Below the pieces are notes generated by a model that made no database searches, was not told the origin of the DNA, and was given only the letters and a program-made list of their open reading frames with translations. The position numbers were made by a program, and so were the translations under genes. Shown here one piece after another: positions 7,063-52,106 of a stretch of 64,000 nucleotides of DNA. The stretch's first letter is position 1, and the number at the start of each line of letters is the position of its first letter. Origin of the DNA: Erysipelotrichaceae bacterium (lineage in GTDB: Bacteria; Bacillota_I; Bacilli_A; Erysipelotrichales; Erysipelotrichaceae); assembly GCA_017473265.1 (NCBI GenBank), contig JAFULQ010000022.1, forward strand, positions 4,954-68,953, given 5' to 3'.

Positions 7063-8979
7063 TTAGGCTATTTCTTTTTTTATGCGATTTAATAAACCAC
7101 CGACTTTTAATGTTTCAATTTCACGATCATTCAAATCATGAGTAACCGTAAATGTACTATTCTTAGTCTTATTTTGTACTACAATTTCTTTACCAACCGC
7201 TAAATCATGCATATGTTCAACACACAATTCATCCAATAACGAAATACTTTCATAATCTTGCATATCTTTAAATAAACAAGGTACAATACCAGAATTAATT
7301 AAGTTTTGACGATGAATACGTGCATAACTCTTCGCAATAACCATTTGAATACCTAAATACATTGGTGCTAATGCCGCATGTTCTCGAGAACTACCTTGTC
7401 CATAGTTTTCTCTAGCAATAATAAAACCACCTTGATGTTCTTTACAACGATTTGCAAATTGTTCATCAATTTGTGAGAAAGCAAATTCACTAATTTTCTC
7501 AATATTGCTACGATACGGTAAAATTTTTGCACCAGCTGGCATAATATGGTCAGTTGTAATATTATCTTCAACCTTAATCATTACTTTTTTACAAATTGTA
7601 TCTTCTAAAGCTGTATTTACTGGGAAAGGTTTAATATTAGGTCCTTGCACCACTTCTTTTTCCCAATCACAATCTGCAGATAGTAACATACTATCATCAA
7701 TTGTATAACTATCCGGCATACTTACTTCTTCATATTCACAATCTCTAGCATCCGCAATATAGCCACACAACGCACTATACGCTGCTGTTTCAGGCGATAC
7801 TAAATATACTCCTGCACTCATTGTACCACTACGACCATAGAAATTACGATTAAACGTACGTAAAGATACAGCATTTGTTTTAGGAGATTGCCCCATACCA
7901 ATACATGGTCCACAGGTTGCTTCTAATAAACGAGCACCACTGGCAATAATATCACTTAAAGCACCACAATCCGCCAACATACGCAATACTTGTTTAGAAC
8001 CAAAAGATAACACCAAAGAGACATCCGGATGTACTTTCTTGCCTTTTAAAATATTCGCAACTGTCATTAAATCAGTAAATGAAGAGTTTGTACAACTTCC
8101 AATTGCCACTTGATCAACCTTCATACCCTTTAAACTTTCAATCGTTTTAATAGCATCAGGAGAATGTGGACAAGCAGCTAATGGTTGCAACTGAGATAAA
8201 TCAATAACAATCGTTTCATCATAAACAGCACCTTCATCCGCTTTTAATTCCACAAAATCACCTGCACGATTTTGTTTTGTTAAAAATTCTAATGTTTTTT
8301 CATCAGAAGGGAAAATAGAAGATGTGGCTCCTAATTCAGCCCCCATATTCGTAATCGTACTTCGTTGAGGAACACTTAAACAAGCTAACCCTTCGCCACT
8401 ATATTCAATAACCTTACCAACGCCACCTTTGACGCTCATAATTTCTAATACTTTTAAAATAATATCTTTAGCACCTACACCATGCGGTAATGTACCCAAT
8501 AATTGCACATTCACAATCTTAGGCATGACTAAAGAAAATGGTCTACCCGCCATAGCACAAGCTACATCCAATCCTCCAGCACCAATCGCTAAAGAACCCA
8601 TTCCTCCTGCAGTAGGTGTATGAGAATCAGAACCCAATAAAGTTTTACCAGGCTTCGCAAAACGTTCTAAATGCACTTGATGGCAAATGCCATTCCCAGG
8701 TTTAGAAAAAACAACACCATAACGATTCGCAACTGTTTGTAAATACTTATGATCATCCGCATTCTCAAATCCACTTTGTAAAGTATTATGATCCACATAA
8801 CTTACAGATACTTCTGTTTTCACTTTATCAATGCCCATAGCCTCTAATTGTAAATAGGCCATAGTACCAGTCGCATCTTGTGTCAACGTTTGATCCATTT
8901 TGATTTGGATTGGTGTACCCCTTTTCATTTCACCAGAAACCAAATGCTTTTGAATAATTTTTTCTGTTAGTGTTAACAT
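7063..8979 (-). CDS. acn: aconitate hydratase
   Basis: Aconitase family motifs are present: GSDSHT, IGSCTNSS and CGPCIGMGQ (Fe-S cysteines). The product is 638 aa. Confidence 0.92.
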   Translation of the reverse strand: MLTLTEKIIQKHLVSGEMKRGTPIQIKMDQTLTQDATGTMAYLQLEAMGIDKVKTEVSVSYVDHNTLQSGFENADDHKYLQTVANRYGVVFSKPGNGICHQVHLERFAKPGKTLLGSDSHTPTAGGMGSLAIGAGGLDVACAMAGRPFSLVMPKIVNVQLLGTLPHGVGAKDIILKVLEIMSVKGGVGKVIEYSGEGLACLSVPQRSTITNMGAELGATSSIFPSDEKTLEFLTKQNRAGDFVELKADEGAVYDETIVIDLSQLQPLAACPHSPDAIKTIESLKGMKVDQVAIGSCTNSSFTDLMTVANILKGKKVHPDVSLVLSFGSKQVLRMLADCGALSDIIASGARLLEATCGPCIGMGQSPKTNAVSLRTFNRNFYGRSGTMSAGVYLVSPETAAYSALCGYIADARDCEYEEVSMPDSYTIDDSMLLSADCDWEKEVVQGPNIKPFPVNTALEDTICKKVMIKVEDNITTDHIMPAGAKILPYRSNIEKISEFAFSQIDEQFANRCKEHQGGFIIARENYGQGSSREHAALAPMYLGIQMVIAKSYARIHRQNLINSGIVPCLFKDMQDYESISLLDELCVEHMHDLAVGKEIVVQNKTKNSTFTVTHDLNDREIETLKVGGLLNRIKKEIA

Positions 8980-14610: not shown

Positions 14611-15697
14611 CTTCTTTTTCCTCTACTTCTTTTTGTTTCATCGCTTCATCAAACAAACGAATCAATTCTTTTTCATCCTCTGCTTCAATCGCATATGGAT
14701 GTAAATTTGCCATAGAATGAAACGATTGTAAAATACGATTCGCAACTTCCTTATTTTGATAATTCAAAACATATTGTGTACGCAATACCGTAATATTATT
14801 ACGCATCATTTGTAAAAATTGTTTAAATTCTGTTGTGATATACATATCTACTGCATATCCCTTTAATAAACGACAATAGATTAACTCACATTGCAACATA
14901 TATTTATGTACACCTGCAAAACCCACATTACGTTGTAACGCATTCTCGATTTCATACTCCACATCATTAAATTCATGCATACTCATCATACGAATGATTT
15001 TGAAATAAATAGCAGCCGCAACCATCTGATTTTGTAATTGATCATAAGAATACTCTATAAACCATTCTTCAGGCATATCTTTTAAAGCAACACCTCTTGC
15101 AAGTTGTGCTGTTACCATCATCTGTAACCAATATGCATGTAAAGCTTCTTTATTTTCTGAAATTGTATCAATAGTAAATCCATCATTTGATATCATTTGA
15201 AGATTTAATGGCAAACCATTTTGTAAAGTAAATATAAACCCACTAAATGCAATAATATAACAAGCTGTATCTACATATACACTAGTAGATAATAAACTAC
15301 AGCCTACTGCGATTAATGCTAATAATGAATTAAAAATACATCCTCCCCACAAATATAATTTAAAAGGCATATTCCCATCTTTTAACATTGGCGGAACCAT
15401 TAAACACTGACCTGCGGTTCCGGCTAAAGAAAAACGTTTATATTGAAGCTTTCCATCTACATTTATCCATACATGATTTCCAATTCGAAATGATAGAAAT
15501 TCATATCCACTCAATAATCCAAATACTAAATGTCCCAATTCATGAACAACCGTTTGTAATATATTGGATACATACATAGCTAACATTAAGCCAATCATAA
15601 TGGACAAAAAAGAGCCATTAGGAACCATAGCCATATAAATAAAAGCACAACCAACACCCAAAAACGTATTTAATGTGCGATAAATAAAATTATGCAT
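14588..15697 (-). CDS. membrane HExxH metalloprotease-like protein (M50/site-2-protease-like N-terminus plus a helical cytoplasmic C-terminal domain)
   Basis: HELGH sits inside a TM helix (TVVHELGHLVFG). A second motif, QNGLPLNLQMISNDG, resembles the M50 LPxxPLDG motif. The tail is acidic. Confidence 0.6.
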   Translation of the reverse strand: MHNFIYRTLNTFLGVGCAFIYMAMVPNGSFLSIMIGLMLAMYVSNILQTVVHELGHLVFGLLSGYEFLSFRIGNHVWINVDGKLQYKRFSLAGTAGQCLMVPPMLKDGNMPFKLYLWGGCIFNSLLALIAVGCSLLSTSVYVDTACYIIAFSGFIFTLQNGLPLNLQMISNDGFTIDTISENKEALHAYWLQMMVTAQLARGVALKDMPEEWFIEYSYDQLQNQMVAAAIYFKIIRMMSMHEFNDVEYEIENALQRNVGFAGVHKYMLQCELIYCRLLKGYAVDMYITTEFKQFLQMMRNNITVLRTQYVLNYQNKEVANRILQSFHSMANLHPYAIEAEDEKELIRLFDEAMKQKEVEEKEDADWNND

Positions 15698-18090: not shown

Positions 18091-18296
18091 AAAAAGCCGT
18101 GCCATTAAGCACGACTTATACTTCAAAAAGAGTCATACATAATAGCGCCTCTACAAACGTAGGAGTGTTACAAGTATTTCCTGTAACCCCAAATAGATAT
18201 TTTGCCAAACATCTACTTTCGGCGATGATTACCTTTCCTCTAGTTCATTGCTTGCCAGCTCCCTAAAGTACTCTGATACACCGCTACCTCTATCGG
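18091..18296 (-). promoter_or_regulatory. probable lysine (L-box) riboswitch with an intrinsic terminator
   Basis: The minus strand reads GATAGAGGTAGCGGTGTATCAGAGTA...GGGAGC...CGCCGAAAG...TTGGGGT...TTGTAACAC...GTAGAGGCGCTAT. A GTCGTGC-TTAAT-GCACGGC hairpin and T run follow. The order of these blocks matches the B. subtilis lysC leader as I remember it. Confidence 0.55.
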
Positions 18297-18351
18297 TTTT
18301 TTTCTTGTATTTTATGTTACTCTTGTATTATAAAATTGTCAACACCTATTT

Positions 18352-19661: not shown

Positions 19662-19735
19662 AGGGGTATAGTACAATGGTAGTATATCGGTCTCCAAAAC
19701 CGCGGATGGGGGTTCGATCCCCTCTACCCCTGCCA
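19662..19735 (+). tRNA. tRNA-Trp (anticodon CCA)
   Basis: I folded the cloverleaf by hand. The acceptor is AGGGGTA/TACCCCT, the anticodon loop is CTCCAAA, the T loop is TTCGATC, and CCA is encoded. It is 74 nt. Confidence 0.93.
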
Positions 19736-20833: not shown

Positions 20834-21766
20834 TTATTTCTTAGCCTTATAAAACATTCTATTTTCTAAAGAGAAAATACGCGCCGTAAATTCCCCTTCT
20901 TGAACAGAATCCATTGCTTTACGCATCATTTCCATGCGTGCATCTAAATTATCAATCATATGCAACACTTCTGCTTCAGGAATCATTGGTAATACTGGAG
21001 AACCAAATTCATATTCCCCATGATGTGATAAAATCATATGACGCAACAATAACACAGACTCATCTTCAATTTGTAATTCCTCAGCCACTTTCGCAACTTT
21101 CGCTTGCATAATCGAAATATGACCTAACAATTTACCTTCCATCGTATATTCAGGAACTAAACCATCCGTTAATTCTACCATTTTACCCATATCATGAACT
21201 AAAATACCTGCAACTAATAAATCACGATTTAACATTGGATATAAATCACAAATGGAATTTGCAATACGTAACATACCTACTACATGTGTAGCTAATCCAC
21301 TTACAAATTCATGATGATTCTTAACTGCAGCCGCATGCTTAAAGAATTGTTCTTCATTTTCAATTAATAATGTACGAACTAATAATTGTAAATTCTCATT
21401 CGTAATACTATCTACTGCTTCCGCAACCTCTTTTTCTAAATCACTTCTAGCAATTAAGCCAGTAGTCACATAATCATCAAGATTATACATACTACTATCT
21501 GCCTCTTTTACATCCACTACACGCAATTGTAAAGCCCCACGATACTTAATAACTTCAGCCTTAACTAAAACCACACTACCTGGTTTTAATACTTCTCTTT
21601 GTACAGGTTTAATATCCCAAAGTTTTCCTTCAATAGTACCTGTGCTATCTTGGAAAGTCACAGATACATAAGGAGCCTTCGCAACCGTAACACCATCTTT
21701 AACTTGAGATACCAACATACAAGACTCTAGAGATTGTTGTTCCTTTAACTCATTAATCTTTATCAT
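20834..21766 (-). CDS. yhaM: 3'-5' exoribonuclease YhaM (OB fold + HD domain)
   Basis: It has an N-terminal OB-like region and an HD domain (GILVHDMGK, LSHHGEYEFGSP). The product is 310 aa. Confidence 0.85.
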   Translation of the reverse strand: MIKINELKEQQSLESCMLVSQVKDGVTVAKAPYVSVTFQDSTGTIEGKLWDIKPVQREVLKPGSVVLVKAEVIKYRGALQLRVVDVKEADSSMYNLDDYVTTGLIARSDLEKEVAEAVDSITNENLQLLVRTLLIENEEQFFKHAAAVKNHHEFVSGLATHVVGMLRIANSICDLYPMLNRDLLVAGILVHDMGKMVELTDGLVPEYTMEGKLLGHISIMQAKVAKVAEELQIEDESVLLLRHMILSHHGEYEFGSPVLPMIPEAEVLHMIDNLDARMEMMRKAMDSVQEGEFTARIFSLENRMFYKAKK

Positions 21767-23744
21767 ATTCTTGTTCCACTTCCTCTACTGCATTATATAC
21801 ATCATCATAATCAAAACCTTTAGATACTAAATAACGGAATACAGTATTACGTAACTTTGTACCCTCATACTTTTGACAATAACGCTTCCAAGCCTTTTGT
21901 GCTTGTTTCATTAAATTTGTATGTTCTACATCTTCATCTTTCTCAAATTCTAATAAAGACATAATTTCATTAACTGTTTCTGTTTCGTATCCTTGTTGAT
22001 ACAATTTCTTTTGTAAAGAAACCTTTTGCATCTTCATAGAACTATCCGTAGGCTTATCAAGCTGTTTTTGTGCCCATTTCACACCACGAGCCACTTCTTC
22101 CTCATGATCTTCATTCGCCAACTCATTTTCCACCGTTTCTTGTGGAATACCTTTTTTCACTAACGTACGAACAATCTTATGATTACCAACTTTTAAAGCA
22201 CGCATCGCTTCAATTTGAGAAATCATATATTGAGCATCATTGATATACCCTTTCTTTTCAAGTTTTTCAATGATTTCATTAATAGATTTAATATCTAATT
22301 CAGTTTCATTTGTTAGGAAATCATACATTTCTTTTCTAGTACGATCTTTAGAGGCAATCTTACGAATACATTGTAAATACGCTTTCGCATACTTTTCATG
22401 TACTAATAATTCTTCTAATTCCTTAGGCATAATCTTCGCATTAATATGATATTTCTTCTCCAAATATAAGTCCCAAGTAATCGTAACTTTTAATTCATCA
22501 CCTTGAGAACTTAAAAGCATTTCAATCATATCATCTTTCATACGCAATGCTTGAATATCATACACTTTTTGATACATATCAATCGCTTGTTGATATACAT
22601 TTAATACTGTTTGACCAAATACACGACTATCATAGATTTCTACTTTCTTAATCGCATTTTGATACATCTTTTCTTTATCTGCTTTATTCATTTCACTAAA
22701 TGCAATTAATTTATCCGCAAATTCTTCTTTTGTTGTAAATAAGAAACCAGTTTCATTTTCTAACACTAAATCCGTTAAAACATCATCAGGTCTAGCAAAA
22801 ACAACCAAACCACTCGCTAAAGCTTCAATAAATGTCATACCTTGTGTTTCAGATAAAGATGCAGATACAAATGCATCAGAAGCATGATAATACGAAGGAA
22901 TCATTGTATGTGGTTTACGATCTGTAAATACCACATAATCTTCTACATCCAAATTCTTAGCCATTTGACGCAATTCATCCAATTGAGGACCACCACCAAC
23001 GATAGCTAAACGAATCTTCTTTTGTAATTTCTTAATGATTGTAAATGTCTCAATAACAATATCAATACTCTTTTCAGCCGCAATACGCCCTACATAAACA
23101 AGTAAGAACTCATCATCCTTAACTCCCATTTCTTTACGCAAAGCCAAACGCGTTTCTTCATCTGTTTTTTCTGGTTCAAAACGTTCCAAATCTAATCCTG
23201 TAGGAATTACATGAATTTGTTTCTTAATGCCATACGCTTCCAAACGCTCTTTCGTTTTTGGACTAGGACAAATTAAAGCTGTACACTTTTCTCCATACAA
23301 TTTACTTAATGAATATACCGCACGTTTCGCAACTCTATCCACTGACTTTAAATTAAAGATATTTACATAGTGGGTATAATCTTCATACATTGTATGATAT
23401 GTACTTACCAAAGGAATAGATAAACGACTCGATACAATACGAGCAAAAATCCCCACACCAAACTCTGTATGTACATGAATGACATCCAAATTCATCTTTT
23501 TAATTTTATCTAACGCAGATAAATGAATTGGACTTGTTAAAACATAACCATAAAAACTATCTAATTCAATACCCGCTAAACGTAAAACACGTTCTTCCAC
23601 TAAATCTTTTGAAGCACTAGATTTTGTTGTAATCACATATACTTCATGTCCTTCTTTTTCCAACGCATTCTTCAATGTCACAATAGAAGAAACTACACCA
23701 TTAATATCTGGTGTATACGCATCTGTAAACATACCAATTCTCAT
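21753..23744 (-). CDS. GT4 glycosyltransferase (glycolipid synthase-like) fused to a C-terminal RecX-like domain
   Basis: I placed the start at ATG 23744 (MRIGMFTDAYTPDINGV) behind AGGAGG. GT4 motifs are present (EKSIDIV, ETQGMTFIEALASG). The last 250 aa or so resemble the long Bacillus-type RecX, with repeated helical units (KGYINDAQY, KKGIPQETV, QQGYETETV, SKGFDYDDV). Confidence 0.8.
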   Translation of the reverse strand: MRIGMFTDAYTPDINGVVSSIVTLKNALEKEGHEVYVITTKSSASKDLVEERVLRLAGIELDSFYGYVLTSPIHLSALDKIKKMNLDVIHVHTEFGVGIFARIVSSRLSIPLVSTYHTMYEDYTHYVNIFNLKSVDRVAKRAVYSLSKLYGEKCTALICPSPKTKERLEAYGIKKQIHVIPTGLDLERFEPEKTDEETRLALRKEMGVKDDEFLLVYVGRIAAEKSIDIVIETFTIIKKLQKKIRLAIVGGGPQLDELRQMAKNLDVEDYVVFTDRKPHTMIPSYYHASDAFVSASLSETQGMTFIEALASGLVVFARPDDVLTDLVLENETGFLFTTKEEFADKLIAFSEMNKADKEKMYQNAIKKVEIYDSRVFGQTVLNVYQQAIDMYQKVYDIQALRMKDDMIEMLLSSQGDELKVTITWDLYLEKKYHINAKIMPKELEELLVHEKYAKAYLQCIRKIASKDRTRKEMYDFLTNETELDIKSINEIIEKLEKKGYINDAQYMISQIEAMRALKVGNHKIVRTLVKKGIPQETVENELANEDHEEEVARGVKWAQKQLDKPTDSSMKMQKVSLQKKLYQQGYETETVNEIMSLLEFEKDEDVEHTNLMKQAQKAWKRYCQKYEGTKLRNTVFRYLVSKGFDYDDVYNAVEEVEQEYDKD

Positions 23745-23755
23745 ACCAAAACCTC

Positions 23756-24778
23756 CTAAACAACCTTCGTTTTCGAATTTTGTACTTTTATAAATACTAT
23801 GGCTCCTAGAATCATCAACAAATGATACGTTGTAAAACGCCATAAAACCATTACACTTGATACTTGAACACTCGACAACAGCATTCCAAACATCATCATA
23901 AAGACACTTTCCGTTCCACCACTCGCTCCTGGAATTGGAATAAAAGCATTCACATTCATTACAAATGATGTCAATGCAATCATTGTTACAAAATCTATTT
24001 TTTCAAAAGGAAAATCTAATGTCCATAAACAAAAGATTGGAATTGCATAATACATCAATAAGCGAAAGATATTAGCTAATACCACTTTAATAAGCAATTT
24101 CCCATTCGAGCGTAATACAGTTATCCCTTTTGAAAACTCGATAAGTTTCACTCTCATTTTTTCTCTAACTGATTCTTCATCTTTAACAATCTTAATTCTC
24201 GCTAAAAATGCAATTGCTACATGCAGAATCCAAGTATACACTTTCTTAGAAAATGTACAAAGAATGAGTACACCAATCACTATAGCATTCACTCCAAAGC
24301 CTAAAATTGCTAGCAAAAAAATAGAGTGATTCATAAAATAAGGTATTTTCCACACCAATAGAATTAAGGATACAAGCACCATAGTAATTTGATAAACAAT
24401 AAAATCAATAACTAGAATACTCGCAGAATGTTCAACCACTAATCCTTGCTTATGAAAAACAAAAACCTGTGCAATTTGTCCTCCACTACTACTTGGAGTA
24501 ATTCCATGAAAAAAGCTGGCGACTAAAGCATTCACAAATCCTTCTTTTAGTGAATAATCCTTCTTTACTATTTTAGCATATTGTTGCAGTATCCAACCAA
24601 CAATTAATTGGCAAAATAACACAACAAGAATTACAACCAAAACTTTACCAACATCTACATTGAGTAAAGTATTCATGATTTCTTCCGTATGATCTTTTAG
24701 TGCTAGCCACAAACCCCAGCCTGTAAAGATACAAACAATAACTGCATTTACTAAATAATTACGAATTAAACTTTTCAT
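23756..24778 (-). CDS. flippase-like / LPG-synthase-TM (UPF0104) family membrane protein
   Basis: It is an 8-TM-type protein with the conserved PIPGASGGTE motif. It sits between two GT4 genes. Confidence 0.75.
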   Translation of the reverse strand: MKSLIRNYLVNAVIVCIFTGWGLWLALKDHTEEIMNTLLNVDVGKVLVVILVVLFCQLIVGWILQQYAKIVKKDYSLKEGFVNALVASFFHGITPSSSGGQIAQVFVFHKQGLVVEHSASILVIDFIVYQITMVLVSLILLVWKIPYFMNHSIFLLAILGFGVNAIVIGVLILCTFSKKVYTWILHVAIAFLARIKIVKDEESVREKMRVKLIEFSKGITVLRSNGKLLIKVVLANIFRLLMYYAIPIFCLWTLDFPFEKIDFVTMIALTSFVMNVNAFIPIPGASGGTESVFMMMFGMLLSSVQVSSVMVLWRFTTYHLLMILGAIVFIKVQNSKTKVV

Positions 24779-25781
24779 TGTTTTCCAATACCTGCTTATA
24801 AACAGACTGTAATTGTTGTCCTATGAAATCAATACTTCTTTCTTGTGCTGTTTTATATCCTTCTTCTTTAACTGATGGTACACGTTTCTCTATAACATCC
24901 TGAATTAATTGAACAAAAACATCATTATTTGTTCCTTTATAACAATTTACTTGATCAAATAACCATTCATCATAAACACCAATATCACGTACAATCACAT
25001 TTTGATGACTCGCTAATGCTTCCAATACCACAATTCCTTCTGTTTCCTCATAGGACGGGAAGAAAAAGACATCACTACCACTAAAAGCTCCTTCAATAAT
25101 AGCCCCTTTAACATAACCAGGGAAAATAACATTATTTGGATGATTGCCTTGAACAATATCACGCACATGACTTGGTATCATCATATTGTTAATGGAACCA
25201 AACCAAATAAACTTATACTCTGGCATTCTTTTGGCTACTTCCACAAAATCAAGTATTCCTTTTCTTTCAAAAAACAACCCAACACACAAAACTACTTTAT
25301 CCTTTTCATCCAAGGAAAAATACTTGCGAAAAGCTTTTACTTTTTCTTCATTATAGCTAAAACACTGTAAATCAATTCCATTGGAAATTGCGTAAATTGG
25401 TTGTTGAAACCCATATCCTTCTAATAAACGCTTGGAATATGGGGTAGGTGTAATAATCAAATCTGCTTGTGAGTACAAATTTATCAAATGCTTTTTAAAC
25501 ATTGGTGCAATCGTATTGGAAAACACAAAGGAATTACGAAAATCCTCTTCTGTAGAATGTGCATGATAAATAACCTTTCGCCCTAATTCTTTGGCTTGTT
25601 TAATCATATGACTACTATTAGGACCTACCGTATTAATATGTAAAATATCATAATCATCACTAGGATCGCATGTCCATTCAATACCTACAGCATCTAATGC
25701 TGCTTGTTGATGTTTCAATGCTCTACCAATTCCAGAACCTGAAATCATCGATTCTCCTTCAAAATATAATAAAACTTTCAT
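24759..25781 (-). CDS. GT4 family glycosyltransferase
   Basis: GSGIGRA lies near the N-terminus, and the EX7E-like region reads PSYEETEGIVVLEALAS. Confidence 0.85.
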   Translation of the reverse strand: MKVLLYFEGESMISGSGIGRALKHQQAALDAVGIEWTCDPSDDYDILHINTVGPNSSHMIKQAKELGRKVIYHAHSTEEDFRNSFVFSNTIAPMFKKHLINLYSQADLIITPTPYSKRLLEGYGFQQPIYAISNGIDLQCFSYNEEKVKAFRKYFSLDEKDKVVLCVGLFFERKGILDFVEVAKRMPEYKFIWFGSINNMMIPSHVRDIVQGNHPNNVIFPGYVKGAIIEGAFSGSDVFFFPSYEETEGIVVLEALASHQNVIVRDIGVYDEWLFDQVNCYKGTNNDVFVQLIQDVIEKRVPSVKEEGYKTAQERSIDFIGQQLQSVYKQVLENNEKFNS

Positions 25782-26067
25782 AGAATCACCTCTTCATAAC
25801 TTATAACTTTACGATAAGCTCCTTAAAAACAAACTACTAATCACTCCATCAAATCGAAAGAAATTCTTAACAAAAAAAACCATATATACACTTTCACTAT
25901 ACACTATATTCCATCTTTAACCAACTGATACACTTTAAATTTTCTTTACTCATTTAATTTAGCACAAAAACAATAACCTTCAATGCACTGTAAACACTTA
26001 CATTAAAATTCACATATTTTTCCATAATTTCTTGATATTTTCAAGAATATTAATTGCTAGTATATAG

Positions 26068-26170
26068 TTGTACAAGAAGTTCCCATCCTTGTACAAGTTT
26101 TTCTCCTCAATAAATAAGATAAGTATTAAAGAATAAAATAGGAAAAGGCATATGTCTTTTTCTTTTTTTA
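26068..26170 (+). ncRNA. possible short C-rich sRNA (unit 0, weakest of three)
   Basis: TATAGT lies at 26063-26068. A self-complementary CTTGTACAAG pair forms a hairpin with loop AAGTTCCCATC. TCTCCTC follows, then a GAAAAG-GCATATGT-CTTTTT hairpin and T run at about 26142-26170. Confidence 0.3.
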
Positions 26171-26182
26171 TGTTTAAAACAA

Positions 26183-26237
26183 TTCACATCATTTCACACA
26201 ATCACACGATATTTCTGCAAACACTATCCTGTATAGT
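26183..26237 (+). promoter_or_regulatory. putative activator-dependent promoter of sRNA copy A (phased TTCACA repeats plus a -10)
   Basis: TTCACA occurs at 26183 and 26193 (10-bp phasing) and ATCACA at 26201. The -10 is TATAGT at 26232. The -35 is poor. Confidence 0.4.
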
Positions 26238-26242
26238 AATAA

Positions 26243-26380
26243 ATGTAAACAAAAAGTGTTTACATACGAATCTCTCCCTAAAATAATAATCCCCTATTAT
26301 TTGATTCGTATTATTCTATCCCCTAAAACAATATGAAACAAGAAAGGTAAAAGGACGAAAGTCCTTTTATCTTGTTTTCT
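26243..26380 (+). ncRNA. putative C-rich small RNA, tandem copy A
   Basis: A 5' hairpin ATGTAAAC/GTTTACAT is present. The stem ACGAATC...GATTCGT encloses TCTCCCT and an ATCCCC apical loop. The linker is TTCTATCCCCT. The terminator is AAAAGGAC-GAAA-GTCCTTTT inside AAACAAG/CTTGTTT. Confidence 0.45.
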
Positions 26381-26382
26381 CT

Positions 26383-26437
26383 TTCACATAATTTCACATA
26401 ATTATGCAACATTTCTATCGAATGTAAGCGCTATACT
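26383..26437 (+). promoter_or_regulatory. putative activator-dependent promoter of sRNA copy B
   Basis: TTCACA occurs at 26383 and 26393, and TATACT at 26432. These are exactly 200 nt from the copy A landmarks. Confidence 0.4.
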
Positions 26438-26442
26438 AAACA

Positions 26443-26579
26443 TATAAGCATATAGTAGCTTATACTATACGAACCTGTATCCCTGTAGATATCCCCCTTA
26501 TCTTTCAGGTTCGTAAAACTTCTATCCCCTTAAATTAAATGGAAAGTACCACATCCCCATGTGGTACTTTTCCTTTTTG
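26443..26579 (+). ncRNA. putative C-rich small RNA, tandem copy B
   Basis: A 5' hairpin TATAAGC/GCTTATA is present. The stem ACGAACCT...AGGTTCGT encloses TATCCCT and a TCCCCCT loop. The linker is TTCTATCCCCT. The terminator is GGAAAGTACCACAT-CCCC-ATGTGGTACTTTTCC followed by TTTTT. Confidence 0.45.
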
Positions 26580-26609
26580 TGGTATGATAAAGACAAGGAG
26601 AATCAATTT

Positions 26610-27143
26610 ATGAAAATATGTGCAATTATTGGAAATGGATTTGAAGAACTAGAAGCAATCGGTTCGATTGCCTTATTAAAAAGAAGCGGAATTGAAGTAG
26701 ACATTTTTTCTTTAGAAAAGGATATTGTTTTAGGTAAACATAACATAGCAATTACCAATGTATTACCACTAAAACAATGCCAAGAAAAAGATTATGATAT
26801 GTTGCTATTACCTGGTGGCCCTCATTATGAACAATTAGAAAATAATGTATACGTTATTGAGTTAATTCATAATTTCTACCAAAAGAAAAAAGGTATCGCC
26901 GCTATTTGTGCTTCCCCAACTATCTTAGGAAAAATGGGATTACTGCAAAATAGAAACTATACCTGTTTTACGAGTATGAATGAAGACTTCAAAGGCACAT
27001 TCTTAGACCAATATGTGGTTAAAGATGATTTTATTATCACTGCTAGAAGTGCTGCCGCATCCATTGACTTTGCTTTTGAAATTATTGAATATTTACAAGG
27101 CAAAGAGCAAAGAACAAAAATCGAAGAACAAATTTACTATTAA
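26610..27143 (+). CDS. DJ-1/PfpI family protein
   Basis: I placed the start at ATG 26610 (MKICAIIGNGFEELE) behind AAGGAG. The track start at 26559 lies inside the upstream terminator hairpin. The nucleophile-elbow Cys is present in AAICASP. Confidence 0.85.
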   Translation: MKICAIIGNGFEELEAIGSIALLKRSGIEVDIFSLEKDIVLGKHNIAITNVLPLKQCQEKDYDMLLLPGGPHYEQLENNVYVIELIHNFYQKKKGIAAICASPTILGKMGLLQNRNYTCFTSMNEDFKGTFLDQYVVKDDFIITARSAAASIDFAFEIIEYLQGKEQRTKIEEQIYY

Positions 27144-27170
27144 AAAAATGTGACACAAGTCACATTTTTT
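27143..27170. terminator. bidirectional intrinsic terminator
   Basis: The hairpin is AAAAAATGTGAC-ACAA-GTCACATTTTTT. Confidence 0.75.
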
Positions 27171-27639
27171 AGTTTCCAGCTCTGAAATTTTCGTATGCTA
27201 CATATGCATTAGAAATTTCTGTTACTAAAGCATCGATAGTAGCTTGATCTACTGTATATACGACTTCACTATCCTTACGAATGCTAGCTGTACCATTATC
27301 ATATACATATAAATAAACAATATCAGCACCCTTTTGTAAAACAACACGTGCAATTGCATTTCCTGCTGTTCCACCTTCTGTAAATGTCATACCATTTACT
27401 GCATTTTGAATAGCTGTATAGTAAGAACCATCAATCTTACTTAAATCAGAATATAACCATTCTGTATTTCCATCTTGTAAGAATGTGTTATAAGCAGCTT
27501 TCATACCGTTAGCACCATATTCATTCATTAATGTTACATATGCAGCACTATCAAATGTATCTTTTTTATCATTTGTATCTGCACAAGCCACTAAACTAAA
27601 AACTAATAATAAACTTAATAAACCTTTAACTAATTTCAT
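27169..27639 (-). CDS. lipoprotein of unknown function
   Basis: I placed the start at ATG 27639 (MKLVKGLLSLLLVFSLVAC, a lipobox) behind GGAGGAA. Confidence 0.7.
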   Translation of the reverse strand: MKLVKGLLSLLLVFSLVACADTNDKKDTFDSAAYVTLMNEYGANGMKAAYNTFLQDGNTEWLYSDLSKIDGSYYTAIQNAVNGMTFTEGGTAGNAIARVVLQKGADIVYLYVYDNGTASIRKDSEVVYTVDQATIDALVTEISNAYVAYENFRAGN

Positions 27640-27706
27640 ATATTTTTCCTCCACAAAAAAAGATTATATGCTTATTTTTTAAAACATACAATCTCTTTTT
27701 CAATTA

Positions 27707-28290: not shown

Positions 28291-28368
28291 CGCGGGGTAG
28301 AGCAGTCTGGTTAGCTCGTCGGGCTCATAACCCGGAGGTCGTTGGTTCAAATCCTTCCCCCGCAACCA
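28291..28368 (+). tRNA. initiator tRNA-fMet (anticodon CAT)
   Basis: The C1xA72 mismatch is present (CGCGGGG...CCCCGCA), as are three G-C pairs next to the anticodon loop CTCATAA. The T loop is TTCAAAT and CCA is encoded. The T stem GTTGG/CCTTC has two U-U mismatches (see findings). Confidence 0.85.
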
Positions 28369-28370
28369 AT

Positions 28371-28446
<76 letters not shown>

Positions 28447-45175: not shown

Positions 45176-45361
45176 ATAAAAAACGTTCCTGTAAAAACAA
45201 CAGGAACGTTATTAACGCGGTACCATCCTGATTCATATCTTGCGATATGCACCTCAATTCACTATAACGTCAGTGTTAACGGGAACTATTAATTCCACTC
45301 CGAAGTAGCTTCCACAACCTATTTTGTGTGATTTGCACCAACCATCACATCTCTAATTACC
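45176..45361 (-). promoter_or_regulatory. T-box leader (Ala specifier GCU) with a terminator
   Basis: On the minus strand I see AGAGA, the distal loop TGGTGCAAA, GAA-GCT-A, the T-box AATCAGGATGGTACCGCG, and the terminator AACGTTCCTGT-TGTTTTT-ACAGGAACGTT followed by a T run. Confidence 0.85.
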
Positions 45362-45393
45362 CATATATCATGTACTTATCTTCATCATCGTTT

Positions 45394-46386
45394 TTAATCT
45401 TCGAAATTATACCACACATCTTCCCAACTGCCAACTGTTTTATTACGTTTTGAAAAGACAAAACTACGAATAATTAATTGAACTACCCCAGCAATAATTG
45501 GTGAAAACAACATTCCAAATATACCAAACAAACTTCCACAAATAAATAAGCTAATTAATGTAACAATTGGTTTTAAATGCATTACTTTTTTGAAGATAAA
45601 TGGCTGTATCCAATTGGATTCGATTTGTTGAAACACAAATACTAAAATGACTAACAAAAAGGGGAATTGTGGATATGTCATTAAACACAATAGAACAAAT
45701 ACTACAAAACCAAACAAAGGACCAAATATCGGAAATAAGTTACTCAATGCCAAAATAGCTGCCACAATAAAACTTTCTGGAAATTGAAAGATAAACAATA
45801 AAATACTAAATACCAAATATAAAAGAATTAAATCTAATAGCACACCTTTGGTATATTGAAAAATAATTGAATCTGCAGTTTTGATAAAATTAGTATCCAA
45901 CTTTATATATTTTGTAATACTCTCCAAATCAAATGAGACAAAAATCGCACAAGTAAAAATAAAACCTAATTGTTTTACTGATTCCATCATACTACTGGTC
46001 TTTTCTACCACCATACTTGGTACAGATAGTAACCAATCATCAGGAATCCACTCTTTCACAATCAAAAACAAACTAGGAATATCAATCGTAATTTGTTGGT
46101 ACCACAGAATTAATTTTGGTATCCCATACCACAATAACAAGATCAATACTAACGCTATACAAACATAGACTACCATTACTTGTACAATACGTTTATTACT
46201 AGGCACTCTATGAATATACACTTCTAAGATTAATGCTAGTAGAAAACCATAGACTAATTGCATAAGTATAGATAAAAGTGAAATCACTGTATTCCATATA
46301 CCCATACTTTGTAATAATAGAACACTAAAATATATAGTAACGATAAATAAAAAAATGAAGGAAAGATGTCGAAAGTATTCTTTCAT
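45394..46386 (-). CDS. AI-2E family transporter (PerM/UPF0118)
   Basis: It is a polytopic membrane protein of 330 aa containing LSNLFPIFGPLFGFV. Confidence 0.8.
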   Translation of the reverse strand: MKEYFRHLSFIFLFIVTIYFSVLLLQSMGIWNTVISLLSILMQLVYGFLLALILEVYIHRVPSNKRIVQVMVVYVCIALVLILLLWYGIPKLILWYQQITIDIPSLFLIVKEWIPDDWLLSVPSMVVEKTSSMMESVKQLGFIFTCAIFVSFDLESITKYIKLDTNFIKTADSIIFQYTKGVLLDLILLYLVFSILLFIFQFPESFIVAAILALSNLFPIFGPLFGFVVFVLLCLMTYPQFPFLLVILVFVFQQIESNWIQPFIFKKVMHLKPIVTLISLFICGSLFGIFGMLFSPIIAGVVQLIIRSFVFSKRNKTVGSWEDVWYNFED

Positions 46387-51826: not shown

Positions 51827-51904
51827 ATAAACACCACCTTTGGATATATTATAACATAACAAAACCATTTGACATTCTTTTTCTTTGTGTTAAATTATTA
51901 TTAA

Positions 51905-52106
51905 CAACATTGAAGAAATAAAAGTAATTTTTAGAGAACTTGTAAAAAGAGAGTGGATGGTTGCTGAAAATTCCACCAAGTACTAAAAGTGAATTGGGAT
52001 TTTGGAGTTGACTCGGTTACAGCCGTTATCTGTTTAAGGACCTTTATGGTTGAAATTGGGTGGCACCACGTTTGTTTATAACGTCCCTTGTTGGGACGTT
52101 TTTATA
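51905..52106 (+). promoter_or_regulatory. T-box leader (Trp specifier UGG) with a terminator
   Basis: The upstream promoter is TTGACA (51869), a 16-nt spacer, then TGTTAAATT. I also see AGAGA, GAA-TGG-G, the T-box AAATTGGGTGGCACCACG, and the terminator AACGTCCC-TTGT-TGGGACGTT followed by TTTT. Confidence 0.85.

Follow-up and report, generated by a model that had tools for sequence, protein, structure and literature searches.

What does the gap between the glycosyltransferase and DJ-1 genes of this Erysipelotrichaceae bacterium (GCA_017473265.1) encode: small RNA (sRNA) genes in their own right, or regulatory elements of some other kind? The Erysipelotrichales are common in gut and rumen and mostly uncultured, and to our knowledge almost nothing is known of their riboregulation. 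The DNA analyzed here, referred to as the window, is a 64-kb stretch of contig JAFULQ010000022.1 (positions 4,954 to 68,953, forward strand). From the sequence and its comparison with relatives, we consider it likely that the gap holds three independent, co-regulated sRNA genes, here named units C, A, and B, whose C-rich seeds would act in trans on Shine-Dalgarno (SD) regions.

Three promoter-RNA-terminator units lie in tandem upstream of DJ-1

The array occupies positions 26009 to 26580 and is arranged in the order C, A, B. Every unit opens with two 10-bp-phased TTCACA(T)AAT repeats followed by a −10 box 39 nt downstream, and then encodes a predicted structured RNA, approximately 100 to 137 nt long, in which C-runs stay unpaired and which ends in an intrinsic terminator. 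The start sites, sizes, and independent transcription given for the units are predictions throughout. The features are as follows.

26009..26028, + strand: unit C promoter, repeats TTCACATATT and TTTCCATAAT at 10-bp phasing, of which the second is degenerate
26055..26063, + strand: unit C extended −10, TGcTAGTAT (spacing of 39 nt from the second repeat's start, shared with A and B)
26070..26169, + strand: sRNA C, ~100 nt (predicted; fold, terminator, four orthologues)
26183..26202, + strand: unit A promoter repeats TTCACATCAT TTCACACAAT (repeat search, orthologue comparison)
26232..26237, + strand: unit A −10 box, TATAGT (sequence, orthologue comparison)
26244..26380, + strand: sRNA A, ~137 nt (predicted; fold, covariance model)
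26383..26402, + strand: unit B promoter repeats TTCACATAAT TTCACATAAT (repeat search, orthologue comparison)
26432..26437, + strand: unit B −10 box, TATACT (sequence, orthologue comparison)
26444..26580, + strand: sRNA B, ~135 nt (predicted; Rfam, terminator, fold, covariance model)
26580..26588, + strand: DJ-1/PfpI extended −10, TGgTATGAT, directly 3′ of the unit B terminator (context, outside the sRNAs)

In a repeat search, the promoter block came out three times (26009, 26183, and 26383, spaced by 174 and 200 nt) and the seed block twice, each as one repeat family. The landmarks of the first-pass annotation were all recovered at their positions, namely the paired TTCACA boxes at 26183/26193 and 26383/26393, ATTTCT at 26211/26411, TATAGT/TATACT at 26232/26432, and TTCTATCCCCT at 26314 and 26520. 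Three intrinsic terminators were located on the + strand (26140 to 26163, 26344 to 26373, and 26541 to 26572), at which each RNA would end, and the kilobase as a whole holds six terminator-like sites where 0.3 are expected from shuffles.

Unit C, previously put forward only as a possible third copy, proved to be real: it has its own degenerate repeat at 26009 to 26028 and its own extended −10 at 26055 to 26063, and it is conserved in four lineages. The repeat site is a perfect TTCACA-N4-TTCACA in the orthologues of L083 and L099, and TGnTAKTAT is kept in 4/4 orthologues. Its RNA is of a shorter type than those of A and B and consists of a hairpin (26068 to 26097, loop UUCCCAUCC), the invariant single-stranded motif UUUUCUCCUCA (26098 to 26108), an A-rich spacer, and a 3′ end formed by the terminator at 26140 to 26163 plus a T-run; compensatory changes occur in two pairs among the four orthologues.

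In unit A, the promoter repeats are followed by a third, half-conserved repeat, CACACGATAT, and by the conserved ATTTCT at 26211, with no recognizable −35 in this promoter. sRNA A folds into a 5′ hairpin (26243 to 26265) and a long stem (26264 to 26272 with 26303 to 26311) that encloses an internal loop, UCUCCCU, and an inner hairpin loop, AUCCCC; the linker UUCUAUCCCCU (26314 to 26324) and the terminator (26344 to 26373) complete the RNA. The promoter repeats of unit B are near-invariant among orthologues, being identical in four of five, with one substitution in L090 and two in L084, and its −10 region reads GCGCTATACTA in five of six lineages and CCGCTATACTA in L084. sRNA B has the corresponding parts: a 5′ hairpin (26443 to 26464), a long stem (26469 to 26477 with 26506 to 26514), an internal loop UAUCCCU, an inner hairpin loop UCCCCCU, the linker CUUCUAUCCCCUUAAAU (26518 to 26534), and a terminator (26541 to 26572) with CCCC in its loop. 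The gene downstream of it (26610 to 27143) was assigned to DJ-1_PfpI by Pfam, and −10 boxes comparable to that of DJ-1 lie at the equivalent place in L082, L083, L090, L099, and L084.

Helices covary around constant C-rich single strands

Against shuffles, the folds of A, B, and C reached z-scores of −7.7, −7.2, and −3.2, respectively. They contain a 5′ hairpin, a long stem around a CCCC-loop hairpin, an unpaired linker, and the terminator, and the same architecture was obtained in 24/24 copies by single-sequence folds run independently. The structure used was drawn by hand on two sequences and then extended by covariance-model-guided alignment. A consensus obtained earlier for the B copies with MAFFT plus RNAalifold was discarded, as a shift in the alignment had made its middle wrong.

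Across 24 distinct copies, 94.8% of cells pair and double-sided changes occur in 33 of 35 pairs, a level reached by 0/500 shuffles, while slid controls pair at 40 to 53%; as the alignment was fitted to the model, these counts favor the structure, and many of the copies are recent paralogues that are not independent of one another. The long stem supplies a compensatory series (ACGAACC/GGTTCGT, GCGAATC/GATTCGC, and GCAGACC/GGTCTGC). The unpaired probability of C-runs outside the terminator stems is 0.71 to 1.0 in the 24 copies and at least 0.83 in nearly all cases, and that of the seed is 0.85 versus 0.46 RNA-wide. The single-stranded linker UCUAUCCCCUU is almost invariant among copies. The covarying stems of the initial description are thus upheld, in that helices covary while C-rich single strands stay constant.

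The units form a multicopy family in two clades

Orthologous arrays were found upstream of DJ-1 in five related metagenomic lineages. C-A-B arrays precede DJ-1 homologues of 80 to 83% identity in L082, L083, and L099, a partial A plus B is present in L090, and B alone in L084. A second clade, very low in GC and Erysipelotrichales-like, carries up to six copies per 8.7 kb (L103). In the window, the neighboring genes are DJ-1 and desulfoferrodoxin, and in the other clade a D-lactate-dehydrogenase-like gene; these neighbors hint that the units may have a redox link.

A covariance model built from two B copies scored all B copies at 95 to 177 bits and all A copies at 29 to 41 bits, and it matched three copies in L092 and 14 in L103, L105, and L106 combined, all on the model strand. 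No further credible match turned up in the window or among other loci totaling 858 kb; one weak match at window positions 15264 to 15393 was dismissed as lying inside a 369-amino-acid open reading frame. Among 80 loci around homologues of the upstream glycosyltransferase (49 to 67% identity), neither the motif nor a covariance-model match was found, and synteny is not conserved on that side. DJ-1 homologues of approximately 60 to 66% identity (L086, L087, L101, and L102) are likewise without units. A metagenome pattern combining the promoter with two C-motifs gave no matches, while the pattern GATATCCCCC...TCTATCCCCTT gave eight, of which one was true (L092) and seven arose by chance in GC-rich coding DNA.

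Rfam was searched at gathering thresholds, and no family reached its score anywhere in the window. The promoter-RNA-terminator modules are conserved in at least six lineages from two clades, and their repeats are essentially exclusive to the units, in agreement with the first-pass proposal of duplicated sRNA genes with activator-type promoters. We conclude that the units are a multicopy family spread through Erysipelotrichales-like gut bacteria and absent from Rfam 15.

Proposed pairing with SD regions and possible relation to RsaE/RoxS

The fold of each RNA would leave three or four C-runs unpaired, chief among them a near-invariant linker that reads UCUAUCCCCUU or, for unit C, UUCUCCUC. Such seeds would pair with G-rich SD regions of mRNAs encoded elsewhere and thereby prevent translation from starting or change the decay of the mRNA, as experiments have shown for RsaE/RoxS and LhrC. 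For RsaE/RoxS, pairing of unpaired UCCC/CCCC motifs with SD regions is established (PMC4409812, PMC6158497). Target prediction within the window returned G-rich SD candidates at aconitase, an Fe-ADH, and an SdpI-like protein, none significant against shuffled seeds. The best candidate was the ribosome-binding site of aconitase (7063 to 8979, − strand), which can form 10 contiguous pairs with the linker of unit B, a value that shuffled seeds equal (P ~ 0.4); citB is RsaE regulated in Staphylococcus aureus (PMC6158497).

The first-pass annotation had raised the possibility of a new RsaE/RoxS-like family, and RsaE/RoxS (RF01820) was indeed repeatedly the best Rfam match, yet far below threshold, at 18 to 28 bits versus a gathering score of 79. 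Unit B scored 23.9 bits (E = 0.15), and RsaE was the top match for 4/4 units at L103:2080-3380 (27.7, 22.6, 21.4, and 18.2 bits). No match was obtained for unit A at E ≤ 10 or for L082, L083, L090, and L092 at E ≤ 1. A literature search for RsaE in Erysipelotrichia found nothing.

These matches raise the possibility that the units are highly diverged RsaE/RoxS orthologues or paralogues, in a lineage that would reach Erysipelotrichales and would have gained a 5′ hairpin and been amplified; we regard this as possible but doubtful. The layout typical of RsaE (a hairpin whose apical loop is C-rich, a single-stranded C-region, a rho-independent terminator, and unpaired C-runs) is present in the 24 copies, and in the RsaE alignments the hairpin with the CCCC loop, the linker UCUAUCCCCUU, and the terminator fall at homologous positions, in register with the family consensus. 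Both are RNAs of about 100 nt with a compound stem and CCCC in the apical loop (PMC4409812), followed by a single-stranded UCCC/AUCCCCUU stretch and an intrinsic terminator, and the CCCC in the terminator loop of copy B is comparable to CRR4 of RoxS. The C-motif is duplicated along with its 3′ flank in both, so that the post-loop C-run motif recurs after the linker C-run, as AUCCCC(C)UUA here and CCCCUUUGUU in RoxS (PMC4409812). An upstream promoter element near −60/−65 is also shared, lying at about −61 to −42 here versus a response-regulator element at ~−65 in roxS, as are redox-linked neighbors (PMC4409812).

Against common descent stand the scores themselves (E-values of 0.04 to 4), the units and lineages without a match, and the fact that short C-rich hairpin-plus-terminator RNAs can converge in form. 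The units differ from RsaE/RoxS in carrying a further conserved hairpin at the 5′ end, its loop (AGAUAAUA) rich in A, U, and G, and the A and B types add an outer stem and a C-rich internal loop. Whereas RsaE is single-copy in the species studied, the units are multicopy and tandem. Transcription of RsaE/RoxS is under activation by ResD/SrrA and repression by Rex; inspection of the sequence here revealed no Rex-type inverted TTGTGAA-N4-TTCACAA operator. The host, moreover, belongs to Erysipelotrichales and not Bacillales, and RsaE has been described as conserved in Staphylococcaceae and Bacillaceae (PMC6158497).

LhrC1-5 of Listeria monocytogenes provide a second point of comparison; these are multicopy, LisR-dependent sRNAs whose expression needs a promoter element upstream of −53, and their five gene copies, with three UCCC sites, pair directly with mRNA ribosome-binding sites (PMC4132741). 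As an analogy of design, both systems consist of sibling sRNAs whose genes each carry a promoter and a terminator of their own, and both have redundant C-motifs, the three UCCC sites of LhrC being located in a loop, a linker, and the terminator loop (PMC4132741). LhrC was not among the Rfam matches of the units even at E ≤ 10, with no sequence or covariance-model similarity. Promoter element and host clade also differ, and the seed here is CCCC inside an 11-nt invariant block. The streptococcal csRNAs are likewise sibling sRNAs, some of them adjacent, with anti-SD-like C/U-rich single strands and direct-repeat promoters (TTTAAG-N5-TTTAAG) that depend on CiaR, an OmpR-type regulator; unlike them, the present units carry TTCACA-N4-TTCACA repeats and a different secondary structure, with no Rfam match. 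The best reading of these comparisons is that the units would work like RsaE/RoxS or LhrC, yet are demonstrable members of neither family.

A promoter signature largely confined to the units

The 20-nt box TTCACATNNTTTCACAYAAT occurs at only three sites in 64 kb with up to three mismatches, all in the sRNA gap. A relaxed form of the repeat gave 39 sites in the 1.05 Mb examined, 37 of them directly upstream of a unit, and the phasing, the sequence, and the 39-nt spacing to the −10 box are kept across both clades. Units C, A, and B are probably each transcribed from a sigma-A-type promoter with a good −10 and no −35. Activity of each promoter would require a protein, most likely a winged-helix response regulator of the OmpR/PhoB type, bound to the direct repeats (TTCACATAAT), of which two or three follow one another with 10-bp phasing at about −61 to −42 relative to the predicted start. 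The DNA sites of such regulators are tandem direct repeats of ~11 bp (PMC4415409); the 10-bp period here departs from the classical 11 bp and counts against this assignment.

We think it unlikely, though less so than the two roles weighed in the next section, that the repeats are instead a repressor operator, a UP-like or curved-DNA element, or promoter sequence that was simply co-copied. Paralogous duplication alone would copy promoter sequence, the A/T-rich repeats with their 10-bp period resemble intrinsically bent DNA, and there is no linked regulator gene: a tblastn search with the response regulator and kinase of L084 found neither a response regulator nor a histidine kinase in the 64 kb. 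The repeats are nevertheless specific to the sRNA genes, sit upstream of a promoter that lacks a −35 box, and are kept between clades whose proteins are ~50% identical while the flanks diverge. In L084, an OmpR-type two-component system adjoins the single unit; since the tblastn search of the window was empty, this adjacency is not a conserved neighbor and was set aside as a clue to the regulator.

Possible leader and sponge roles

The units could alternatively be cis-acting leaders or attenuators in which transcription from the upstream promoters passes regulated terminators to reach DJ-1 or, for the other clade, D-lactate dehydrogenase, with the C-rich loops sensing a factor. All units are co-oriented with the downstream gene, and some regulation by read-through is possible. 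Unit B ends 30 to 40 nt before DJ-1 in all six Erysipelotrichaceae lineages, including the window, and one copy lies just upstream of the D-lactate-dehydrogenase-like gene in L092, L103, and L105. Each unit has, however, its own conserved promoter and strong terminator, no anti-terminator pairing is evident in the folds, and a separate −10 box for DJ-1 follows the last terminator. The neighboring gene also differs by clade (DJ-1 versus a D-2-hydroxyacid dehydrogenase), DJ-1 homologues of ~60 to 66% identity do without units, and several copies lie downstream of genes or in gene-free arrays with no co-oriented neighbor (e.g., L103 2146-3349 and 6568, and L105 3069). A match to a riboswitch or leader family, named in the first-pass annotation as evidence that would count against sRNA genes, was sought in Rfam, and no such family came near threshold. 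A leader role is accordingly judged highly improbable.

It is equally improbable that the RNAs mainly sequester a protein or RNA that recognizes C-rich motifs and do not act on ribosome-binding sites: we know of no Firmicutes protein that binds C-rich RNA in such a role, and the 11-nt invariant stretch exceeds a typical protein-binding motif. Several motif copies per RNA in loops and linkers, with high gene copy number, do make up a titrating-RNA design, and one report places RoxS itself under the control of an RNA sponge (PMC8216469), but the identical design serves direct mRNA pairing in LhrC (PMC4132741).

Implications

The locus defines a structured, covarying sRNA family outside Rfam 15 whose seed, UCUAUCCCCUU, and promoter signature are both clear. 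Annotation pipelines could take the family up, and the promoter motif offers a way to trace the cognate regulator and the signal behind it. As the mechanism class, in which a C-rich seed acts against SD regions and sibling sRNAs answer to one regulator, is well established already, the result extends existing understanding and does not overturn it. A more speculative proposal, to which we give limited credence, places the units in an ancient RsaE/RoxS superfamily as its Erysipelotrichales branch, in which gene and promoter were amplified jointly into arrays of three to six or more copies; a dedicated response regulator for redox and central metabolism, in gut anaerobes that are abundant and for the most part uncultured, would then act mainly, perhaps solely, through the arrays. 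If the link to RsaE/RoxS is true, the only widely conserved Firmicute base-pairing sRNA would extend beyond Bacillales, and the arrays would be a natural example of sRNA dosage expansion by tandem amplification.

A tandem array of three units between the glycosyltransferase and DJ-1 genes

The 828-nt gap between the genes for a GT4 glycosyltransferase and a DJ-1/PfpI protein contained no credible open reading frame (ORF) upon an ORF search. It holds three alike units, C, A, and B, all on the forward strand, each running from direct repeats through a -10 box and a structured RNA to an intrinsic terminator.

Features of the glycosyltransferase/DJ-1 gap (window coordinates)
24759-25781 (-), GT4 glycosyltransferase gene (Pfam), one edge of the gap
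from 26009 (+), unit C, two direct repeats phased at 10 bp, TTCACATATT TTTCCATAAT; -10 box TGcTAGTAT
26140-26163 (+), unit C terminator
from 26183 (+), unit A, two direct repeats phased at 10 bp, TTCACATCAT TTCACACAAT; -10 box TATAGT
26344-26373 (+), unit A terminator
from 26383 (+), unit B, two direct repeats phased at 10 bp, TTCACATAAT TTCACATAAT; -10 box TATACT
26541-26572 (+), unit B terminator
26610-27143 (+), DJ-1/PfpI gene (Pfam), other edge of the gap

In all three units, the -10 box lies exactly 39 nt from the start of the second repeat, and no -35 box is recognizable. The 20-nt repeat block (≤3 mismatches) occurs at three sites in 64 kb, all within the gap, and the gap kilobase has six terminator-like sites against 0.3 expected. 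The coordinates quoted in the first-pass annotation were all correct when re-checked, and the shorter third unit that it had raised as a possibility, unit C, proved real, with its own repeats, -10 box, and terminator. DJ-1 has an apparent promoter of its own: an extended -10 box, TGgTATGAT (26580-26588, +), directly follows the T-run of the unit B terminator, so that the -35 region would fall within the terminator hairpin. A -10 box is found at the matching position in loci orthologous to this one.

Predicted RNAs share one architecture with exposed C-runs

RNAs A and B, predicted to be about 135 to 137 nt, gave fold z-scores of -7.7 and -7.2, respectively. Their predicted folds have a common architecture consisting of a 5' hairpin, a long stem enclosing a C-rich internal loop (UCUCCCU or UAUCCCU), an inner hairpin with the loop AUCCCC or UCCCCCU, an unpaired linker that carries UUCUAUCCCCU in both, and a terminator, whose loop in unit B is CCCC. 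RNA C (about 100 nt; z = -3.2) is simpler, with a hairpin of loop UUCCCAUCC leading to single-stranded UUUUCUCCUCA and a terminator. Unit C is kept in four lineages with UUUUCUCCUCA invariant and two covarying pairs.

A covariance model was built from two B copies only, using a hand-drawn structure. All B copies scored 95 to 177 bits and all A copies 29 to 41 bits, every match was on the model strand, and the search returned no credible match besides the units; the only other weak match in the window was rejected, as it lies inside a 369-amino-acid ORF. Covariation was computed on an alignment of 24 distinct copies, as well as on a 13-copy version. In the larger alignment, standard pairs filled 94.8% of cells, 33 of 35 pairs were changed in both partners, the observed pairing and double-change values were not reached in any of 500 column shuffles, and sliding the partners by 1 to 3 columns lowered pairing to 40 to 53%. 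This alignment was fitted to the model and therefore leans toward the structure, a bias answered by two independent checks. First, the long stem of B orthologues shows by eye a compensatory series (ACGAACC/GGTTCGT, GCGAATC/GATTCGC, and GCAGACC/GGTCTGC), together with a T-A to A-T swap between loci L099 and L090. Second, single-sequence folds of the 24 copies gave one architecture throughout; C-runs outside terminator stems were unpaired with a probability of 0.71 to 1.0 (nearly all ≥0.83), and the linker seed was unpaired at 0.85 versus 0.46 RNA-wide. Covarying helices combined with a near-invariant 11-nt single strand are the pattern that a base-pairing seed would be expected to show.

Promoter and RNA are conserved together in two clades

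Loci of DJ-1 homologues were surveyed by falling identity. The C-A-B array lies directly upstream of DJ-1 in L082 (83% identity), L083 (80%), and L099/L100 (82%); L090 (75%) has a partial A plus B, L084/L085 (73%) has one B-type unit, and the units are absent at loci with 60 to 66% identity, as well as from 80 loci around glycosyltransferase homologues. An ENA metagenome contig encodes the window glycosyltransferase without any sequence difference, and NCBI names the DJ-1 cluster Erysipelotrichaceae. Among these Erysipelotrichaceae loci, the repeats and -10 box of the B promoter are almost unchanged, while its flanks differ.

A metagenome pattern scan yielded a further locus, L092 (contig 24% GC), in which a GNAT gene and a D-2-hydroxyacid dehydrogenase gene flank three units in tandem; relatives of this dehydrogenase led to L103-L107. 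This second, low-GC clade is probably a deep, uncultured Erysipelotrichales lineage, since the best named relatives of the L105 GlpD-like protein (about 50% identity) are in Solobacterium and Erysipelotrichales. L103 has six copies across 8.7 kb, L105 has three, and L106 has five.

Copies in the low-GC clade (locus coordinates)
L103: 2095-3349, 4751-4913, 6513-6679
L105: 94-268, 1790-1952, 3014-3183
L106: 1-660

These copies, scoring 22 to 43 bits with the two-B-copy model, are without the outer long stem and retain the 5' hairpin (loop AGAUAAUAA), a GAUAU-CCCCCU-AUAUC hairpin, the linker UUCUAUCCCCUU, and the terminator. The middle L092 copy (1294-1438, -) is a variant with linker AAUCCCAUU rather than UCUAUCCCCUU and an additional hairpin ahead of the terminator, which suggests divergence of the seed sequence among siblings. 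RNA gene and promoter are amplified together in this clade, to as many as six copies per 8.7 kb. A D-lactate-dehydrogenase-like gene has one copy immediately upstream; a further copy begins directly after this gene in L105 and L106, and in L103 a copy comes after the next gene downstream.

Each low-GC copy is preceded by AAACATAATT TTACATAATT AAACGATAAT, the third repeat (ACGATA) being common to these copies and unit A. An extended -10 box, TGGTATATT, follows about 18 nt beyond, so the repeat-to-(-10) spacing equals that of the Erysipelotrichaceae group. A relaxed promoter motif, ACAYNWTWWNACAYAWT, had 39 sites in the 1.05 Mb examined, 37 of them directly upstream of these RNAs and the other two among 858 kb of unrelated loci. 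The promoter accompanies the RNA, and each unit is its own predicted gene. Flanking genes are not alike between clades, and copies are placed ahead of genes, behind them, or in arrays, which argues against an attenuator role for the units, although some read-through may occur.

Proposed regulation and targets

For units acting as separate sRNA genes, transcription would depend on a protein at the phased repeats (about -61 to -42), because a -35 box is missing. Head-to-tail repeats of this kind are bound by OmpR/PhoB-type response regulators (PMC4415409). In lhrC promoters, the element responsive to LisR is upstream of -53 (PMC4132741), and roxS has its ResD element near -65 (PMC4409812). Neither a response regulator nor a kinase is encoded in the 64-kb window. 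In L084 (1769-3685, -), an OmpR-type response regulator and a histidine kinase are divergent from the single B-type gene and followed by VTC, DUF4956, and Cthe_2159 genes; the regulator appears as two ORFs (Response_reg, 114 aa; Trans_reg_C, 119 aa), probably through a frameshift or assembly error. This pair, with no homologue in the window, was rejected as a clue to the cognate regulator, as it is not a conserved neighbor.

The C-runs would pair with G-rich Shine-Dalgarno (SD) regions, by analogy to RsaE/RoxS and LhrC, for which such pairing has been shown (PMC4409812, PMC6158497, PMC4132741). GGGG is present in several ribosome-binding sites of the window (aconitase, Fe-ADH, and an SdpI-like protein). 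In the short leader of aconitase (7063-8979, -), the SD AAGGGG is part of AUUUAAGGGG, a sequence perfectly complementary to the unit B linker, with 10 contiguous pairs. In S. aureus, citB is RsaE regulated (PMC6158497). Because shuffled seeds match as well (P ~0.4), aconitase is only a lead as a candidate target. Neighboring genes, and these alone, suggest a redox theme: DJ-1 and desulfoferrodoxin in the window and the NAD-dependent D-2-hydroxyacid dehydrogenase in the low-GC clade, paralleling the redox-related neighborhood of rsaE/roxS (PMC4409812).

Other features of the window

Matches at Rfam gathering scores were ordinary Firmicute features, consistent with the Bacilli/Erysipelotrichales assignment.

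45199-45397 (-) and 51901-52091 (+), T-box leaders
18135-18300 (-), lysine riboswitch
19662-19732 (+), 28291-28365 (+), and 28371-28443 (+), tRNA genes

A 696-aa protein (21753-23843, -) is an unusual fusion in which a GT4-type glycosyltransferase (Glyco_transf_4 and Glycos_transf_1) is followed at the C terminus by RecX helical domains (RecX_HTH1 and HTH3); its operon also encodes a second glycosyltransferase and an LPG_synthase_TM protein. An ORF of 156 to 161 aa (27169-27654, -) with a lipoprotein-like N terminus and no Pfam match recurs in locus L001, which equals the window at the motif sites checked; in L083 and L084, an ORF of similar size (157 to 159 aa), also lacking a Pfam match, adjoins the desulfoferrodoxin gene.

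Relationship to known sRNA families

No Rfam 15 family matched the units at threshold. RsaE (RF01820), which the first-pass annotation had named as a comparison, was the best sub-threshold family (unit B, 23.9 bits; all four L103 units, 18 to 28 bits), with loop, linker, and terminator in register. Because these scores fall far short of the 79-bit gathering score, unit A has no match, and the matches vanish in larger search spaces, RsaE membership is not demonstrated; the units would resemble RsaE/RoxS in action and may be distant relatives. In organization they are closest to LhrC1-5, which likewise comprise sibling copies with separate promoters (here putatively regulator dependent) and with redundant UCCC motifs placed in the loop, the linker, and the terminator loop. 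LhrC has no sequence similarity to them. A literature search for RsaE-like RNAs in Erysipelotrichia returned no report.

Promoter, RNA, and terminator of the units are conserved as modules, the helices covary, the C-rich seeds are exposed and conserved, and the organization is multicopy. The earlier reading of duplicated C-rich sRNA genes with their own promoters is supported to the extent that computation allows. The units are a new predicted sRNA family of a well-known kind, of note because the genes are amplified, in tandem and in multiple copies, along with a dedicated promoter motif, because a deep relationship to RsaE/RoxS is possible, and because the hosts are poorly studied gut bacteria.
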